A stretch of 64,000 nt of DNA from Promethearchaeota archaeon (GTDB lineage Archaea; Asgardarchaeota; Lokiarchaeia; Sigyniarchaeales; SOKP01), in assembly GCA_048938895.1 (NCBI GenBank), contig JBHLLU010000016.1, positions 1 to 64,000 of the forward strand, in the 5' to 3' direction. Below, piece after piece: positions 5,148 through 34,784 of this stretch (within the stretch, counting starts at the first letter, position 1; every line of letters starts with the position of its first letter). The notes beneath the pieces are model-generated. The model was not told the origin of the DNA and searched no databases. It saw nothing but the letters and a program-made list of their open reading frames with translations. The position numbers and the translations under genes are program-made.

Positions 5148-5753
5148 TTATGCTTTTTTATTCCAATGGATAAATATTTGGAATTTAAAACTTTTACCTT
5201 TATATTCACCGTCACTAATTGCGGAAAACTCAAATCCGTTATGCTCATGCCAATAAACAGAAGCTTTATTGAAAATAGGTTGCTCTACTATAAAAGCAAC
5301 TATAGGAGTATTAATTTTTTGTAAGGCTTCTTGAATAATTTTAGTACCAATCCCTTTACGCTTAAATTGAGGCAAAATACTAATCTGGTCTAAGTATGCA
5401 AACTCTGTTTTTTCATTAAGGAGTAAATCTTTCGTTTTATTATTTTCGAAGGAGAGATTTCCAATAACATCTCGTACTTTAACTATATTATACTTTTTCA
5501 TGTGGATGCTAGCAAATCCAATAATCTTCCCTTCATCACTTACAGCAATGTAGATATCGATGTCCCGATCCGCAATCAACTTTTTATAATAATCAATGTC
5601 GACTTCTTTTCTTAAAAAACCTTCTTCTTCTAACTTCTTTCGTTCTTGTTTTGAGATTTCATCGACATCCCTAATTTCAAACAGATTTTGCTTAAGGGCA
5701 TTAAGAATTCCTTCAGTGTCTTCTTCAGTAGCAATTTTAATTTCTGATTTCAA
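5148..5753 (-). CDS. GNAT family N-acetyltransferase
   Basis: Acetyl-CoA motif LDQISILPQFKRKGIGT and N..S..WHE.NGF; TTG start. Confidence 0.85.
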   Translation of the reverse strand: MKSEIKIATEEDTEGILNALKQNLFEIRDVDEISKQERKKLEEEGFLRKEVDIDYYKKLIADRDIDIYIAVSDEGKIIGFASIHMKKYNIVKVRDVIGNLSFENNKTKDLLLNEKTEFAYLDQISILPQFKRKGIGTKIIQEALQKINTPIVAFIVEQPIFNKASVYWHEHNGFEFSAISDGEYKGKSFKFQIFIHWNKKA

Positions 5754-5991
5754 AAAATAACCTTTGTTTAATATTTTTAGAACTTAATAAAAATAGAATA
5801 TTTGATACTAATATAATTCCTGTTATTTCATTAATTATCTTATATTAAGGTAGATTTAGTAGATTAGATTAATATCTAAATTTGATAGATTGAAATAAAT
5901 TAGATCCTAACTCCTTAATTTTTATAAAAAATAAGAATATTTTAAATTTCTAAGAGACATAGAATGTATTATAACTAATTAAGGGATATTT

Positions 5992-22310: not shown

Positions 22311-24473
22311 TCAACTCCCATAAGGGAGGATTAATCTTTGTTCAATTAATTTCTCTAATCCATCGATTATTAGATCCTCGTTTTTATCTCTAAATTCCTC
22401 GATAATATCCATTAATCTAAATGTTCTTTTTTCTTCAAGAATCAGAAATATCTTTTCCAAGATATGGACTTGGATTTTTGAAAGTCTGTATTTTTTCTTT
22501 ATATTCTGTAGATCTTTATTAGCATATTCAGTTATAAAACTATCCTTATAAAACAAATCAAAATATTCATCTAAAAGAGGAGAAATCAATTGAGAATATT
22601 CGGTGACATCATTATCAAAATCTTTTAGACTTTTTGAAATTTTCAGATAGGATGCTAATGTGAAATTAAATAAAGTTTGTTTTAATCTTTTGGAAGATCT
22701 TGATTTTAGAATAAGTACAGAACGTAATTCTTCAATATCTAAGATTAGACAGAAAAATTGTTTTAGATCTAATTCAATTACTTTTTGACTATCAATTTTT
22801 TTCAAACTTTTAATTTTATCAATATTACTAGGGTCTTCTTGAGAAATTTCCTCACCTATAATTGATATCGCTTGAATGAAACCTGAAAAAAGTGTTTTCT
22901 TACTTTTTATCAACGAGGAATATTCTTTTGAGAAGATAGGAAGACCACTCTCACGATGAATCAAAATTATTCCTTGTATATTCCTTATATCCTTAAATTT
23001 TTGAGTTCTTAACATAAGATAAGTCTCTCGTTTCTTATGATGAGGTAAAAAGATATAGGATCTTAAACTTAATGCGCCTAAAATCCCAATAACTACAAAT
23101 AACAAAGTGAAAATTATTAATAGTGAGAAATCTTTTTCAGGTATTATTTCTTTATAAGAAACCTCAAAGATAACATCATCTAATGTAATTGTAATTATAT
23201 CCGGTAAGGTAAACTCATCTGCGAGATATAATTCAATAGCTACAGAAACATTTTCTTCTTCTGAAATTAATGTCTTAATATTAAAACCTCCTGGTTTTGC
23301 TTCTTGAAAATCTGTAGTAAAATTATTCTCAATGAATTTAATAGTCTCTAAAAGTTTGTTATTGTTTACTAAAATTCTTATTTCAGAATTAGGAGATAAG
23401 GAAGTGGGCCATTCATCCTCAAGTTTATATTTAAAATTGAGCTTTGCATCAATTAATTCGATATTATTATGACTTAGATCATTAATTTTTCCAGTAATTT
23501 GATTCCAAGACAAAGTTGTAAATTTGTTAATTTTTTTCTCATAGGTAAACGTGAGATTTACTGATTTTATCCTTAAGAGTTTCCACCAATCACTATCTTG
23601 AGGAAAATTGTCTTCACACCAAATTCTCATACCGATTGTTAAGGTGAAATTATGATTATCACTATTGAGTACTGAAGTTAGGTATATAATCAGTGACTCC
23701 TCAGTTATAGGGATCAATTGAGTATCATAAAGAAATTCAATTTCAGGACCCGAATCTTGACCTAAATCAGTTGTTTGAAAGTGTGCAATCTCATATTTTT
23801 TACTTTTTTCCAAATCTGAAATTTTTACATAAAATCTAACATAATCACCCATCGAAAATTCTTCACATCCATCGTTAGCAGTATCAATGCCATCTGAATA
23901 ATCAGGAGGATCAGCAGAAAAAGTTGCAACACTCCCATTTACAATAGAAGAAATATTTGCAGAAGTGATCACATAGTCGGACATGTCGACGGGTATAGTT
24001 AAATTTGTATCCCAATTAACAGCAACTGATTGATCTGGTCCTTCTCTCCAATAATGAGAAACCCACGCTCCGCTTTTACCAATACCGTAAAAGTCTGGAA
24101 AAGAGGGATAATCAAGATTGGGAACTGCATCCCAGGTAGAATTAAGAACGGGATTTGAAAGAAATGAAAAAGTCTTGTGTTCTCCCCTTATATTATAATG
24201 TACTTCGCCTGGGCTTAGTGATGAATTAACATCAGAAAAATCCCCCTCTATTGTTGAATTCCAATATTGTAAAGGAGAATCGAAAGAACAGTCTTTAAGT
24301 AGCTGTGCCGTGCAAGATTTAGTACTTGAAATATTTAGTTTTTGACCACCATTCTTTCTTACATTTCTTGAAGCTAAATCGCTTATTTTGAGCGTGATCG
24401 TACTTGATAAAAATATAATTAAGATTAAATAAATGAATTTATGTTTATATTTTCGAATTCTTCTATAGAACAA
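22311..24473 (-). CDS. Receptor-like membrane protein: N-terminal anchor, large extracellular beta domain, TM, cytoplasmic longin-like domain and C-terminal winged-helix-like region
   Basis: Hydrophobic N-terminus, many NxS/T sequons, TM near aa 450-473, then IILIHRESGLPIFSK...LFSGFIQAISIIGEEI. Confidence 0.6.
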   Translation of the reverse strand: MFYRRIRKYKHKFIYLILIIFLSSTITLKISDLASRNVRKNGGQKLNISSTKSCTAQLLKDCSFDSPLQYWNSTIEGDFSDVNSSLSPGEVHYNIRGEHKTFSFLSNPVLNSTWDAVPNLDYPSFPDFYGIGKSGAWVSHYWREGPDQSVAVNWDTNLTIPVDMSDYVITSANISSIVNGSVATFSADPPDYSDGIDTANDGCEEFSMGDYVRFYVKISDLEKSKKYEIAHFQTTDLGQDSGPEIEFLYDTQLIPITEESLIIYLTSVLNSDNHNFTLTIGMRIWCEDNFPQDSDWWKLLRIKSVNLTFTYEKKINKFTTLSWNQITGKINDLSHNNIELIDAKLNFKYKLEDEWPTSLSPNSEIRILVNNNKLLETIKFIENNFTTDFQEAKPGGFNIKTLISEEENVSVAIELYLADEFTLPDIITITLDDVIFEVSYKEIIPEKDFSLLIIFTLLFVVIGILGALSLRSYIFLPHHKKRETYLMLRTQKFKDIRNIQGIILIHRESGLPIFSKEYSSLIKSKKTLFSGFIQAISIIGEEISQEDPSNIDKIKSLKKIDSQKVIELDLKQFFCLILDIEELRSVLILKSRSSKRLKQTLFNFTLASYLKISKSLKDFDNDVTEYSQLISPLLDEYFDLFYKDSFITEYANKDLQNIKKKYRLSKIQVHILEKIFLILEEKRTFRLMDIIEEFRDKNEDLIIDGLEKLIEQRLILPYGS

Positions 24474-27785: not shown

Positions 27786-28274
27786 TTAACTTGATATGTC
27801 CATTTCGATATGACAAATTTCTGCTGTTTGAAGACGATTTTTAGTTACATTAGGATCGATTCCTCTAGCAAATGAAATTGCTCCCGTTAAGATTCCTCCT
27901 ACAGGACAAGCAGTATTTCCTTCAAGATCATATCCTCCAATTCTTTTCGGGCAAATTAGGCATTTTTGCACGACTAATTTTACTTGTTCATCTGTTACAT
28001 CCACATCCAATTCTTCTGCTAAGTTTATAACACTCATTAAACCATTTATCAATTTTTCATCAGTATCTGAAACACTTACAGCTTTATTTTCTAGCATTGT
28101 CTTCATTAATTCTCTCCCAATCCAAATACTTAATGAATCCATCGCATCTTGGGTAGAAACACCAAATTCTTTATTTAAAATAAAATCTCTAGTTTTTATC
28201 AAACCATGCCCTAATCCAATGATCACTCTATTTAGATATTTAGTATCTTTAGCTTTTTTTTTGAATATCTTCAC
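27786..28274 (-). CDS. Stand-alone V4R-like domain protein (V4R/Bet3/H-NOX superfamily)
   Basis: Helical N-half (WIGRE), then V.KCLICP...CPVGGILTGAI...CHIEM metal-binding pattern. GTG start overlaps the upstream stop by 4 nt. Confidence 0.6.
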   Translation of the reverse strand: MKIFKKKAKDTKYLNRVIIGLGHGLIKTRDFILNKEFGVSTQDAMDSLSIWIGRELMKTMLENKAVSVSDTDEKLINGLMSVINLAEELDVDVTDEQVKLVVQKCLICPKRIGGYDLEGNTACPVGGILTGAISFARGIDPNVTKNRLQTAEICHIEMDISS

Positions 28275-28855
28275 ATTACATCACCTCTTAAGGTTGTCTT
28301 AATATCGTTCAATTTATGGTTATTTTTTTCTATTTTAATGAATTGTTTATTAATCATTCCCTTTTCAACATATTTATCAATTATTTTTAATATAGATTCT
28401 TGATCAATCGTCCTATTTATCGCTTTGTTTAAAATTGAAAGTTTTTGTAATAAACTTGGAATACTTATCTTGTTAGATTTAGAAATTTGTAATATAACTT
28501 GTTTTTCTATAACATTAGGGAATATTTCTTTTGTTATATATTCAACATCATAGTTCGAGCTCAATACTAATTTCTCCTCTAACTTTGTAGCTGGAATAAC
28601 ACTAGGTATAATTAGTTCTTCTTCAATATTATTATCGTTGGTTTGAGTTCTCTTTTTTATTATATTATTAACGGGTTCTATTCCCTTTACTTCGAAATTC
28701 TCATCCACATAAGCAATTAATGATGCGTTACAGTGCTCAACTAGAAATTGAACAGGGAAACGATCCGATTTCAGAATAAACTCTTTATCTATATCAAAAA
28801 TAATTGTCTTATTACAGATTGGACAATTACTCCTAATAGATATTTTCTCAGACAT
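28271..28855 (-). CDS. Zinc-ribbon protein with winged-helix-like domain (domain shared with the neighbouring GTPase)
   Basis: N-terminal CPIC...EHC..LIAYVD.NF; the C-terminal ~80 aa are clearly homologous to the C-terminus of 28957..30258. Confidence 0.7.
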   Translation of the reverse strand: MSEKISIRSNCPICNKTIIFDIDKEFILKSDRFPVQFLVEHCNASLIAYVDENFEVKGIEPVNNIIKKRTQTNDNNIEEELIIPSVIPATKLEEKLVLSSNYDVEYITKEIFPNVIEKQVILQISKSNKISIPSLLQKLSILNKAINRTIDQESILKIIDKYVEKGMINKQFIKIEKNNHKLNDIKTTLRGDVM

Positions 28856-28956
28856 TTCTTTTACCTTTATATCACTATATATAAGACAAGCTACTAAATA
28901 TGAAGAAAGTTAAAATAATAATAAAGTAATGGATATATAAATTTATTAAAAATAGA

Positions 28957-30258
28957 TCAAATATCTTCTTGTTGTGTAATATTTGATTTTTCAAATTGTT
29001 CTATATCTTTATCAAATTTTAAAATTTGTTTTTTAATTTGACCTTTTTGGATATATTTTTCAGTTATGTTTAACACTGTAGTTTTATCAATCTTTCTATT
29101 GAGAGCTTTTTCTAAAGGTGCTATCTTATTCAATAGTATTGCTAAGCTTATTTCCTTATACCTAGCTATATTCTTTATTACGTTTTTCTCTAAAACATTT
29201 GGTATGTTGCTTTTATCGACGGTTTCAACATCGATATTACAAATGAATACAATTTTTTCATCCTCAGTTAACTTTTGAATAAAATCAACTGTAATTGGTG
29301 TAGCAATAACTTTATCATCATAATCAAGAAAAAGATAATTAATTAAGTACTCAATCAATTCATTTAATCCTTGTTTAGTCCGCATTGATGATTCAAAGAA
29401 TTGACAATTGTTATTTAAAGCTATTTTTTCAGCAATATTCTTGATCTCATATCTATTAGGTACAAGATCAATTTTATTTCCGACAATTAAAAAAGACACT
29501 TCTTTATTATCAACAAACTGATTTACTTCTGAAATCCAATCTTCAACTTCGTGGAGAGACTCTTCTCGGGAGTAATCAAACATTATTATTATGACATCAG
29601 AATAATTGAAAAAATACCTTCTTATCTTTCCAAAACTTCTAAGACTTGATAAATCAAAAATGTTAATACTGAATTTACTACCTATCTTCGTTTCAAATGA
29701 TTTTTCAATTAAGGAAATTCCGATTGTAGGATGATAATCGTGAATAAAAGTATCATTACATAACCTCCTAACTAAAGCTGTTTTACCTACCGATTCAGAT
29801 CCAATTATAATTAAATTTCTACTTCTTGATTTCAAAATAAGATTAGCTTCTTTATTGATACTTGGTAATTCACATGAAATGTCGAATTTATTTAAACATA
29901 AAGAAATTCTATCAGCCACGATATGAGCATAAGGAATATAATCATCTAAATGAGAATAAGGATCTCCGATTAACACTAACAATGCTCCCGGATTTTTCCC
30001 TAATTGAATATAGAATAATCGGAATTGATCGATGTCAAATGATCCACTCCCTAATTCTGATTGAGTAAATCTTTTTATTTTATTCAAGGTTTGGTCTAAA
30101 AGTGATGTAATACCACCAATTAACTCCTCATCAAATGTTTTTAATGAACTCTTTACTACAATAAATCCATTAAAATCAACAACTAGGGCAGATAATAGAT
30201 CTGGAACTTCTCTTATGAAATTATCTAATAAAATCTGTAAATCCGATGATTTACTCAT
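28957..30258 (-). CDS. Roadblock/LC7 + Rab-like small GTPase + winged-helix-like fusion
   Basis: N-terminal LLSALVVDFNGFIV roadblock pattern; G1 GSESVGKT, G2 PTIG, G3 degenerate DLSS, G4 NKID, G5 ESSMR. Confidence 0.85.
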   Translation of the reverse strand: MSKSSDLQILLDNFIREVPDLLSALVVDFNGFIVVKSSLKTFDEELIGGITSLLDQTLNKIKRFTQSELGSGSFDIDQFRLFYIQLGKNPGALLVLIGDPYSHLDDYIPYAHIVADRISLCLNKFDISCELPSINKEANLILKSRSRNLIIIGSESVGKTALVRRLCNDTFIHDYHPTIGISLIEKSFETKIGSKFSINIFDLSSLRSFGKIRRYFFNYSDVIIIMFDYSREESLHEVEDWISEVNQFVDNKEVSFLIVGNKIDLVPNRYEIKNIAEKIALNNNCQFFESSMRTKQGLNELIEYLINYLFLDYDDKVIATPITVDFIQKLTEDEKIVFICNIDVETVDKSNIPNVLEKNVIKNIARYKEISLAILLNKIAPLEKALNRKIDKTTVLNITEKYIQKGQIKKQILKFDKDIEQFEKSNITQQEDI

Positions 30259-33527: not shown

Positions 33528-34784
33528 TTGACAAGAGAAGTAATTATTGGGCTTGATTATAGCCATGGTAATATATTAACCATAGAAGCGTCCAGTTTTG
33601 CCGAATTTACACAATTTTTATTTACTTCGGGTTATAAAATCGGAAAAATAGAAACTGGATTTAACTCTATTTCCGAATTAAGAAAATACAGAGTTATTAT
33701 ATTATCCACGCCTAAGAATTCAAAACTCAGTCCAAATGAAATTGAGAATCTTAAGAAATACGTGAAGGGAGGAGGTAATCTTTTAATAACTAGTTCTAGT
33801 GGTGGCGATTATGGAAATAATACGAATTTAAATGAACTGACTCAAAATTTTGGTTTTGAATTTTTAAATGATGAAATAAATGATTCAGTGAATTTTGTTC
33901 ATCTTCAAAAAAGACCTCTAATAACAAATTTTAAACCTCACATTGTCACTGAACAAATAAAGAAAGTTGTTTTTTCGAGTTCATGTTCTATTCATACTTT
34001 GGATTTCATCGATGATGAGAAAAATATCAAAGTAGATGGTATCCTCATCTCTGGGTTAAATAGCTGGCATAGAATATATAATGGAGAAGACTGGGTTGAG
34101 GAAGATAGTCCTAAAGTTCCTCTTTTAGCAGCATCAGAATATTATGCAGGAAAAGTTGTTGGATTTGGTAATATAAGTATATTTTCTTCATTGGCTAGAG
34201 AATATGGTTTTAGTGCTTTTGATAATGATATATTGATTGCGAACATCATTAATTGGTTGATAGGTACTTTAGAATCTGAAGGAAAGGCAGTAACAATAGA
34301 GCTAAATCTTGATTTATTTTATTGGGCAGAAAAAGTAGTAAAGGAGGAAAAATGGGATGGCATCTCAGATCTTATTAATGTTAGTCTCAAGTACTTTAAA
34401 GATAATTACAAGAGTATTATAGAAGAAATAAAGAAAATTAGACAAGAAAAGCTAGAGAAAAAGAAAGCTTATGAAAAAGCAAAAAAGGAAGCTGAAAAGG
34501 AAGTTACTGATGAAGAAGTACTGGAAAGGATCCCTATTTTTGAAAGAAAAAAAGAAGATCTTGTTGACATTATAAGCGAATTAGAAGAAGTTACTGGAGA
34601 ACATTATGAGCTCTCAATAGATTTAGGAGAGGAAGAAGAACAACTAATAGACGAATCAACTCACTTAAGTTATACGAATGATGATATTGTTGAGTTTGAA
34701 CGTGGATTTCCCAAGAAAGCGATATGGAAAGGTCAAGCTACTATCGCGTTTAAAACTTGGTTAAAAAAGAAATATAAAACTTAG
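33528..34784 (+). CDS. GIFT/DUF4350 (GldG/IFT52-like) domain + RHH-like segment + acidic coiled coil
   Basis: LDYSHG, L..YVKGGGNLLI, LNELTQNFG, GKVVGFGN..IF, DN.ILIANIINWL; then VTIELNLDLFYWAEKVV...ISDLINVSL. Confidence 0.65.
   Translation: MTREVIIGLDYSHGNILTIEASSFAEFTQFLFTSGYKIGKIETGFNSISELRKYRVIILSTPKNSKLSPNEIENLKKYVKGGGNLLITSSSGGDYGNNTNLNELTQNFGFEFLNDEINDSVNFVHLQKRPLITNFKPHIVTEQIKKVVFSSSCSIHTLDFIDDEKNIKVDGILISGLNSWHRIYNGEDWVEEDSPKVPLLAASEYYAGKVVGFGNISIFSSLAREYGFSAFDNDILIANIINWLIGTLESEGKAVTIELNLDLFYWAEKVVKEEKWDGISDLINVSLKYFKDNYKSIIEEIKKIRQEKLEKKKAYEKAKKEAEKEVTDEEVLERIPIFERKKEDLVDIISELEEVTGEHYELSIDLGEEEEQLIDESTHLSYTNDDIVEFERGFPKKAIWKGQATIAFKTWLKKKYKT

Follow-up and report, generated by a model that had tools for sequence, protein, structure and literature searches.

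Asgard archaea encode dozens of small GTPases together with many roadblock, longin and TRAPPC3-like proteins. Can the layout of a genome reveal which of these regulators is paired with which GTPase? We examined this question at a three-gene locus of a Promethearchaeota archaeon, contained in the first 64,000 nucleotides of contig JBHLLU010000016.1 (assembly GCA_048938895.1; contig C114 in our survey), a stretch that is referred to throughout as the window. The locus, at positions 27786-30258, consists of three co-directional open reading frames (ORFs) on the minus strand, the last two of which overlap by 4 nt; the ORF coordinates confirm this arrangement, which had been described in a first-pass annotation made from the sequence alone. 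Our analysis identifies a conserved pairing of a winged-helix (WH) domain with the protein encoded by gene 3, and we lean towards the view that the three genes specify one protein assembly around a small-GTPase switch, in which the WH domain would dock a Rab-like switch onto a pocket protein of the Bet3/V4R fold. The genes are laid out as follows:

28957-30258, minus strand: gene 1, 433 amino acids (aa), ATG start; fusion of a roadblock domain, a Rab-like G domain and a WH domain.
28271-28855, minus strand: gene 2, 194 aa, ATG start; Zn module, linker and WH domain.
27786-28274, minus strand: gene 3, 162 aa, GTG start; four-Cys protein with a predicted Bet3/TRAPPC3/V4R fold.
28271-28274, minus strand: GTGA overlap of 4 nt, containing the gene-3 start codon and the gene-2 stop codon.

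Genes 1 and 2 are separated by a spacer of 101 nt, and in other loci, too, there are gene-2/gene-3 pairs that overlap or abut.

The conserved core of the locus is the pair formed by the WH protein and gene 3. In a survey of 400 genomes of the phylum, we counted as gene-3 orthologues the matches at E<=1e-25, found in 39 genomes; this threshold was our own choice and leaves out eight genomes with weak matches (G005, G087, G118, G120, G121, G122, G310 and G352), which probably represent V4R-like paralogues of another kind. In 38 of the 39 genomes, the gene immediately upstream of the orthologue encodes a WH protein (the window itself, sets of 20 and 7 loci, 3 genomes, and 7 genomes assessed by coordinates), the exception being G032, which has a truncated gene 3 and no WH match. 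Across 20 loci of 8-13 kb, only the WH and gene-3 families are present in 20 of 20, the next family occurring in 3, and the genes that flank the module are not conserved with it in the loci compared. Since the arrangement recurs in many genomes, it is not due to chance. The first-pass annotation had envisaged that the trio would be conserved together; a conserved set does exist, but its core is the pair, and the fused gene 1 is found in only 9 of the 400 genomes. The type of WH partner varies, from the Zn-WH protein, seen in three families including that of the window, to a bare WH protein of 81-97 aa in one family, to WH domains behind other N-terminal domains elsewhere.

GTPase genes accompany this pair in 18 of the 32 loci for which flanks were available. 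The fused roadblock-GTPase-WH gene is present in the 9 genomes mentioned above, in the order gene 1-gene 2-gene 3 in 5 and gene 2-gene 3-gene 1 in 4, and in 9 other loci, from distant families, a plain Ras-family GTPase of 168-182 aa is encoded just upstream, directly so in L044, L048 and L049. A weak GTPase-like match in L042 (E 0.002, ~4 kb upstream) was left out of this count.

Gene 3 had been proposed to be a V4R/Bet3-like protein. Its AlphaFold2 (AF2) model (predicted local distance difference test score, pLDDT, 80.8; predicted template modelling score, pTM, 0.78) confirms a two-layer alpha/beta fold of the V4R/Bet3 type over the whole protein, and a Foldseek search with the model gave 19 matches at E<=0.001, with mouse Bet3 first. 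VIA-align of the same model returned the following Z scores:

TPC6B (2cfh_C): Z 12.6, root-mean-square deviation (rmsd) 3.7, 141 residues aligned.
Bet3 chains: Z 11.0-11.7.
Thor-TRAPPC3 (7yh3_C): Z 11.4.
PoxR (V4R; 5fru_A): Z 10.9.
MopR: Z 10.0-10.6.
MJ1460 V4R (2oso): Z 9.0.
BcsD: Z 8.9.

Nearly the whole of gene 3 therefore has the same fold, as modelled, as Thor-TRAPPC3 (PDB 7yh3, 7yh2), Bet3/TRAPPC3 and TRAPPC6 (Z 11.0-12.6, 139-142 residues aligned), and the fold is shared with the bacterial V4R sensors PoxR, MopR and DmpR, the archaeal V4R protein MJ1460 and MetOD1 (Z 9.0-10.9), the eukaryotic TRAPP subunits being ahead of the bacterial sensors by 1-2 Z only. Solved members of the Bet3/TRAPPC3/V4R fold hold a hydrophobic ligand pocket. 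Four cysteines of gene 3 (C105, C108, C123 and C154) are invariant in 21 sequences. Within this fold, zinc-binding Cys clusters are known from Thor-TRAPPC3 and PoxR. Thor-TRAPPC3 has four Cys in a comparable region, and the text of the study that describes it reports that its four Cys bind zinc and that the protein contains internal cavities (Tran et al., 2024; PMC10933270). A Cys cluster is also common to gene 3, V4R and MetOD1, and MetOD1 has been described as similar to HNOB, V4R and ATC hydrolase and as having three conserved Cys (Galperin et al., 2018; PMC5847659).

The structural likeness to TRAPPC3/Bet3 has no counterpart at the level of sequence. Neither local Pfam nor NCBIfam assigns gene 3 to a family, the V4R, MetOD1 and TRAPP models of Pfam match 0 of 21 gene-3 members at E<=1, and genome scans with PF18546, PF02830 and PF04051 miss the gene-3 locus; the Pfam TRAPP model finds nothing in the source genome, and a gene-3 profile (A1) searched against PDB sequences matches no TRAPP or V4R chain at E<=1. 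The precomputed family PF27343.1 is present on all of the at least 120 gene-3 homologues listed. Fused or longer forms of gene 3 were not found, which is weak evidence. Unlike the known V4R and MetOD1 proteins, gene 3 stands alone, with ~160 aa and a WH partner, and is neither the N-terminal sensor of an AAA+ activator nor a response-regulator output domain. One orthologue (P0113) is DSAG12_03938 of Promethearchaeum syntrophicum, a cultured strain (NCBI accession WP_147665075.1); UniRef names it 'Metanogen output domain-containing protein', and it is neither of the two MK-D1 TRAPPC3/V4R accessions that are analysed in the text of Tran et al. (2024; PMC10933270).

The WH domain that accompanies gene 3 is present in both of the other genes of the locus:

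28328-28570, minus strand: gene 2 residues 96-176, WH domain with the predicted gene-3 contact (VIA-align, complex model, profile A6).
29011-29253, minus strand: gene 1 residues 336-416, WH domain, predicted paralogue of the gene-2 WH (45% identity, WH tree).

Residues 333-418 of gene 1 and 93-178 of gene 2 are 45% identical over 86 aa (E 9e-20), and C11, C14 and H41 are invariant in 15 gene-2 sequences, which agrees with the earlier description of gene 2 as carrying the C-terminal domain of gene 1 behind a zinc-binding domain.

Complex modelling supports binding of the gene-2 WH domain to gene 3. The model of gene 2 with gene 3 scored 0.64 against 0.00 for the best of three controls, a result that 'supports binding' and bears out the expectation that a complex would be predicted, the score being the model's own confidence and not a measurement. 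Solved complexes attained this mark in 58 of 80 cases and mismatched pairs in 2 of 110, rates that hold only roughly here because our own alignments were used. The complex runs agree in at least 5% of contacts, with a partner pLDDT of at least 77. The predicted contact surface comprises residues 108, 113-119, 122, 126 and 141-148 of gene 2, which include the motifs PNVxEK and LEKALNR, and residues 27-54 and 130-146 of gene 3. The WH side of this interface is somewhat more conserved than the rest of the domain (mean entropy 1.49 vs 1.87, permutation p ~0.045), and gene 1 has the same residue as gene 2 at 9 of 16 interface positions, compared with 22 of 53 elsewhere in the WH. On gene 3, the predicted contact falls on helices that correspond to the two N-terminal helices of Thor-TRAPPC3, which form its dimer interface according to the text of Tran et al. 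(2024; PMC10933270). The first-pass annotation had also suggested that the module acts through winged-helix heterodimers, an idea that finds no support here since the model sets the WH against gene 3 and not against another WH.

What kind of WH domain is this? In the AF2 model of gene 2 (15 sequences, pLDDT 74.6), residues 102-176 form a winged helix, and the linker (residues 67-88) and tail (176-194) fall below 50 and are predicted to be disordered. VIA-align relates this winged helix to many WH domains at Z 6.4-8.6, the best match being GATOR1 chain 8fw5_C (Z 8.6, rmsd 2.5, 72 residues aligned), followed by PerR (Z 8.2), Fur (7.8), SEA-complex chain 8adl_S (7.5) and cullin WHB (7.4), with ESCRT-II 1u5t_B at Z 6.4. 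Because these values are tied, the domain is best taken as a generic WH fold with no specific kinship in the modelled structure. A Foldseek search with the gene-2 model gave no match at E<=0.001, 2yu3 appearing at probability 0.97, and a Pfam search with the WH returned noise only and no regulator family. When the WH profile (A6, built from 29 WH sequences) was searched against PDB sequences, the sole match was the Lrp/AsnC-type regulator 2ia0_A, which is weak (E 0.079). Among 1.84 billion proteins, the same profile matches 50 representatives at E<=0.001, ranging in length from 52 to 433 aa, with no long or eukaryote-type protein among them. In most full-length matches the WH is C-terminal and stands behind nothing, the Zn module, another domain or a roadblock-GTPase. 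The N-terminal domains of the WH partners L047, L050, P0203 and P0224, considered as candidate roadblock- or longin-like domains, gave nothing by PDB or Pfam search, and aligned to the roadblock profile (A3) by hhalign at a probability of 9.8% over 34 columns. In a tree of WH sequences, the near-family Zn-WH clade is split from the distant WHs with 100/100 support and contains the gene-1 copies as a single group (85/97; 92% of bootstrap trees), which fits an origin of the gene-1 WH from a single duplication and fusion.

Gene 1 had been read as a roadblock domain, a Rab-like G domain and a C-terminal domain, and each of these parts was recovered. In addition to the WH described above, the protein contains:

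29884-30258, minus strand: gene 1 residues 1-125, roadblock/LC7-type domain (Atlas structure match, homology via P0036).
29332-29823, minus strand: gene 1 residues 146-309, Rab-like G domain, atypical at its catalytic positions (Pfam Ras, PDB matches, motifs).

We found 23 near-full-length homologues of gene 1, with 42-77% identity, bearing Asgard source names (Promethearchaeota, Lokiarchaeota, Thorarchaeota and Hermodarchaeota). Its N-terminal 135 residues match no Pfam family at E<=10, Robl_LC7 (PF03259) included, and the roadblock-domain profile A3 yields chance-level rows only against PDB sequences. The assignment as a roadblock domain follows from two other lines of evidence: the ESM Atlas model of residues 1-125 has template modelling (TM) scores of 0.77-0.79 to Robl_LC7/MAPKK1_Int clusters, and residues 23-131 align, inside one BLASTP match (E 5e-33), with the roadblock-GTPase (RB-GTPase) P0036, residues 11-100 of which pass the Robl_LC7 cut-off (28.9 bits vs 23). 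In the central domain, residues 149-307 match Pfam Ras (E 2.3e-30, 105.7 bits vs a cut-off of 21.6). Its top PDB sequence matches are Rabs (Rab39B at 2.5e-19, then Rab30, Rab12, Rab21 and Ypt1), the Thorarchaeota Rab 7ezb matches at 1.1e-16, and KRas first appears at row 55 among the best 60 PDB matches listed. The Pfam scan gave no Gtr1_RagA match for gene 1, and by sequence the G domain is Rab-like and not Rag-like.

The motifs of a small GTPase are the G1 P-loop GxxxxGK[ST], the switch-I Thr, G3 (DxxG followed by the catalytic Gln, Q61 in Ras) and G4 (NKxD). In an alignment of 19 full-length members of the gene-1 family (A5), G1 is kept as GSESVGKT in gene 1 and GSE[AS]VGK[ST] across the family, with G153, G158 and K159 invariant; T178 of switch I is invariant, as are N261, K262 and D264 of G4, which reads NKID in gene 1. 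By Ras numbering, the family has Glu at the position of Gly12, and the position of Gln61 is Leu or Ile in 19 of 19 members, so that the catalytic Gln is absent. G3 itself reads DLSS in the window's subgroup (D202-L-S-S-L) and DLGG-I in distant members, compared with the canonical DLAGQ of P0036. With its nucleotide-binding motifs intact but no catalytic Gln and, in the window gene, no DxxG Gly, the G domain is probably able to bind nucleotide and would hydrolyse GTP slowly on its own, depending on partners. Eukaryotic Rabs end in a prenylatable Cys motif; this is absent from gene 1, in which the WH follows the G domain and the protein ends ...TQQEDI.

These results suggest how the locus might work. 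Gene 3 would be a zinc-stabilised protein of the Bet3/TRAPPC3/V4R fold, in which zinc and ligand binding are predicted from its relatives, and it would be bound by a dedicated WH domain that exists almost only for that purpose. In the window's lineage this WH is carried by two proteins, by gene 2 behind an Asgard-specific Zn module and by gene 1 as what appears to be a duplicated copy, and we infer that the gene-1 WH binds gene 3 as the gene-2 WH is predicted to do. The WH would then serve as an adaptor through which the roadblock-GTPase docks on the Bet3-fold protein, and the state of one part, whether a ligand or lipid in the pocket or the nucleotide on the G domain, could be read by the other, in a direction that may be either. 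The roadblock domain in cis is a likely candidate for regulating the G domain, which has no catalytic Gln of its own, and guanine nucleotide exchange factor (GEF) or GTPase-activating protein (GAP) activity may reside in the module. The earlier interpretation, taken as a whole, is partly supported. The module predicts a contact surface, made of the PNVxEK and LEKALNR motifs of the WH and the N-terminal helices of gene 3, and its natural variants (fused, unfused and bare WH) offer built-in controls, so that whether archaeal Bet3-fold proteins act on Rab-like switches becomes a testable question.

Several observations weigh against this docking model. The distribution of gene 3 is patchy, with matches at E<=0.001 in 47 of the 400 phylum genomes and in 4 of 53 other genomes of its own genus. 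No GTPase is present in the flanks examined of 12 of the 32 loci (a further 2 end at a contig edge), and a GTPase neighbour is therefore not required for the pair to exist. G158, G280 and G281 have gene-2-like genes but no gene 3, and G159 and G139 have degraded gene-2-like copies. The three complex runs gave 0.64, 0.00 and 0.64, and the score itself expresses model confidence. Finally, the WH fold resembles DNA-binding regulators such as PerR and Fur about equally with protein-binding WHs.

The last point leads to a different account of the locus, as a split ligand-responsive transcription regulator in which the WH binds DNA, the V4R-fold protein senses a hydrophobic molecule in the manner of PoxR, MopR or DmpR, and the GTPase provides an accessory input or is a neighbouring target of regulation. 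In its favour are the likeness of the modelled WH to PerR, Fur, MecI and MarR-type regulators, the weak profile match to 2ia0_A noted above, the match of the gene-3 model to the phenol-sensor domains of PoxR and MopR (Z 10.4-10.9), and conserved Lys residues on the third helix and wing of the WH (K161 and K170, kept in 20 and 21 of 29 sequences, respectively). However, the most conserved positions of the WH (the invariant K118 and the E/K/A/L/N run spanning 143-147) map to helix 1 and the end of helix 2, the modelled gene-3 site, and not to the third helix. Moreover, the WH family is tiny and tied to gene 3, one of its copies forms part of a roadblock-GTPase fusion, a layout not known among regulators, and the inverted repeats in two upstream intergenic regions are just AT-rich palindromes of no evident meaning. 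We regard a dedicated transcription regulator as unlikely, although one WH could bind both DNA and gene 3.

A further reading makes the WH/Bet3-fold pair a self-sufficient ligand or lipid carrier, or an enzyme-like unit, its adjacency to GTPases reflecting no more than the abundance of GTPase genes, and the gene-1 fusion a lineage-specific add-on. The 12 of 32 loci without a nearby GTPase and the family in which the WH partner is a bare protein of 81-97 aa agree with such a unit; small GTPases are indeed numerous in Asgard archaea, 74 being reported for MK-D1 in the text of Tran et al. (2024; PMC10933270), and relatives of MetOD1 have been suggested to be possibly enzymatic in that of Galperin et al. 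(2018; PMC5847659). Against it, GTPases are directly adjacent and in the same orientation in distant families (L044, L048, L049, L064 and L067), the WH has been duplicated onto a GTPase and kept in 9 genomes, and other V4R-like genes of the source genome also adjoin GTPase or roadblock genes; on this evidence a pair independent of the switch seems rather improbable. That the three genes are unrelated neighbours with no functional module between them is hardly credible: the flanking genes are ordinary metabolic ones (an AMP-binding enzyme and a nitronate monooxygenase), but the synteny counts contradict this idea, with the pair adjacent in 38 of 39 genomes, as do the 4-nt overlap, the domain common to genes 1 and 2, and a complex model that scores above its controls.

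How does the proposed WH-docked assembly compare with known systems? TRAPP is composed of Bet3-family and longin subunits (Bet5, Trs23 and Trs20) and catalyses nucleotide exchange on Rab. Unlike TRAPP, the locus provides no Bet5-, Trs23- or Trs20-type partners that we could identify for gene 3, and the likeness consists in a Bet3-fold protein found together with a roadblock domain and a Rab-like GTPase, as known here from genes and models. It is quite unlikely, in our estimate, that the module is a minimal archaeal TRAPP-type Rab exchange machine in which the WH-docked Bet3-fold protein controls the nucleotide state of the roadblock-bearing GTPase upon binding of a lipid or small molecule in its pocket. 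Were that so, Bet3-family proteins would have been coupled to Rab-like switches before eukaryotes arose, and the idea could be examined in a cultured Asgard strain with the gene-2/gene-3 pair. A roadblock domain is likewise paired with a small GTPase in MglB-MglA, Ragulator-Rag and GATOR1 (NPRL2/3), from which the locus differs in that the gene-1 roadblock is N-terminal and in cis; the GATOR1 chain 8fw5_C, though first among the structural matches of the WH, is less than 1 Z ahead of PerR and Fur, and no sequence link of NPRL2/NPRL3 to the WH was found with Pfam or with the WH profile among the 1.84 billion proteins.

Closer relatives are found among the Asgard archaea themselves. The RB-GTPases P0025-P0036 (337-357 aa) align with the roadblock and G domains of gene 1 at E 1e-26 to 1e-35, the differences being the additional C-terminal WH of gene 1 and, relative to P0036, the replacement of WDLAGQ by FDLSSL. 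RB-GTPase fusions and AF2 models of MK-D1 TRAPPC3/V4R proteins have already been published, and the text of the same study states that GTPase genes of MK-D1 do not as a rule share operons with genes for roadblock, longin or TRAPPC3 proteins (Tran et al., 2024; PMC10933270). In contrast to that layout as described, the linkage of gene 3 to GTPases is conserved, and the module is a conserved case in which genome layout does help, by placing together one Rab-like GTPase family, one Bet3/V4R-fold family and the adaptor that apparently joins them. According to the text of a second study, most genes for Asgard eukaryotic signature proteins (ESPs) lie outside conserved neighbourhoods, the exceptions being ESCRT and an operon encoding a LAMTOR1-like roadblock protein, a Rab-like GTPase and a DENN protein (Liu et al., bioRxiv 10.1101/2020.10.19.343400). 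The latter operon, as described there, likewise couples a Rab-like GTPase to regulator-type proteins of the roadblock superfamily, whereas in our locus the partners are a WH and a Bet3/V4R-fold protein, with no DENN.

The RB-GTPase-WH architecture is not seen in the text of Tran et al. (2024; PMC10933270), whose Fig. 1f and supplements list architectures, and 'TRAPP' and 'V4R' have 0 occurrences in the main text of 10.1101/2020.10.19.343400. In the literature searched, we found no description of the WH/Bet3-V4R-fold pair or of the RB-GTPase-WH fusion, which may be listed in supplementary tables (those of Tran et al. and the asCOG/ESP tables of Liu et al.). RB-GTPase fusions and Asgard TRAPPC3 are thus known, and the WH/Bet3-fold pair and the RB-GTPase-WH fusion are apparently new.

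The remaining part of gene 2 is its N-terminal module:

28658-28855, minus strand: gene 2 residues 1-66, Asgard-specific predicted Zn-binding beta domain (invariant C/H, model strands, Atlas).

In the AF2 model this domain has five strands and short helices. Its nearest clusters in the ESM Atlas are all archaeal and without a Pfam family, and include stand-alone forms of 71-75 aa, proteins of ~197 aa and proteins of ~275 aa, a quarter of the last carrying a ubiquitin Pfam family; the TM score to a bacterial Zn_ribbon_21 cluster is 0.64. Matches to the module also occur in ORFs of ~200 aa and ~550 aa in most genomes of the family. Individual examples are the C-terminus of a 197-aa protein (L053:1489-2082, minus strand), the N-terminus of a 166-aa protein (L054:1441-1941, plus strand) and the N-terminal part of a 281-aa protein encoded just downstream of the pair in G163 (L039:6674-7519, plus strand).

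The pair also appears to have its own transcriptional signal in the spacer behind gene 1:

28934-28941, minus strand: TATA-box-like element TTTATATA, 16 nt past the gene-1 stop and ~80 nt ahead of the gene-2 start.

When the regions preceding nine gene-2 orthologues are aligned, the element, TTTAWATA, is kept in 9 of 9, with or without gene 1 upstream, and alignment columns T35, T36, A40, T41 and A42 are invariant in these regions. The element may act as a promoter and, together with the 4-nt overlap, its conservation suggests that genes 2 and 3 form a bicistron with its own promoter and that gene 1 is transcribed separately. Just downstream of the TATA-like box, at 28900-28933 (minus strand), is a T-rich stretch (consensus TTTTATTATT..TTTTAA) that is partly conserved across the aligned loci. 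The window is AT-rich, with a GC content of ~0.27-0.35, and the source assembly (4.65 Mb) is 98.7% complete and 7.5% contaminated.

Relatives and remnants of the module genes were seen at other loci. The source genome contains five other small ORFs with V4R/MetOD1 matches, all below the Pfam cut-offs, of which three adjoin GTPase or roadblock genes: one is flanked on both sides by Ras-family GTPases (L072, G000:C61:30628-33765), one comes immediately after an Arf-like GTPase (L070, G000:C83:38073-41213) and one immediately after a Robl_LC7 gene, with a further two small ORFs behind it (L069, G000:C53:3777-6983). Those in L068 and L073 have no GTPase or roadblock neighbours. L072 also holds a 99-aa ORF with a thioredoxin-type CxxC, recognised by eye. 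In L036 (G271:C19), where the order is gene 2, gene 3, gene 1 and a second gene-3 paralogue, the last (5293-5784, minus strand) follows the fused GTPase gene and is 55-56% identical to gene 3 of the window. The gene-2-like frames in L059 (G159:C145) and L060 (G139:C535) are broken by several stops and stand beside small GTPase genes with no gene 3; from their sequence they look like decaying copies.

Elsewhere in the window, a 720-aa membrane protein (22311-24473, minus strand) was considered as a further part of the module and rejected, as it has no Pfam match and aligns to the WH profile by hhalign at a probability of 0.4%. It contains one hydrophobic segment, and its cytoplasmic end appears by eye to be roadblock-like and WH-like. 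A 418-aa protein encoded at 33528-34784 (plus strand) matches ABC_transp_aux and the GIFT domain of IFT52 in Pfam (E 2.1e-10 for the latter) and ends in a tail rich in Glu and Lys.

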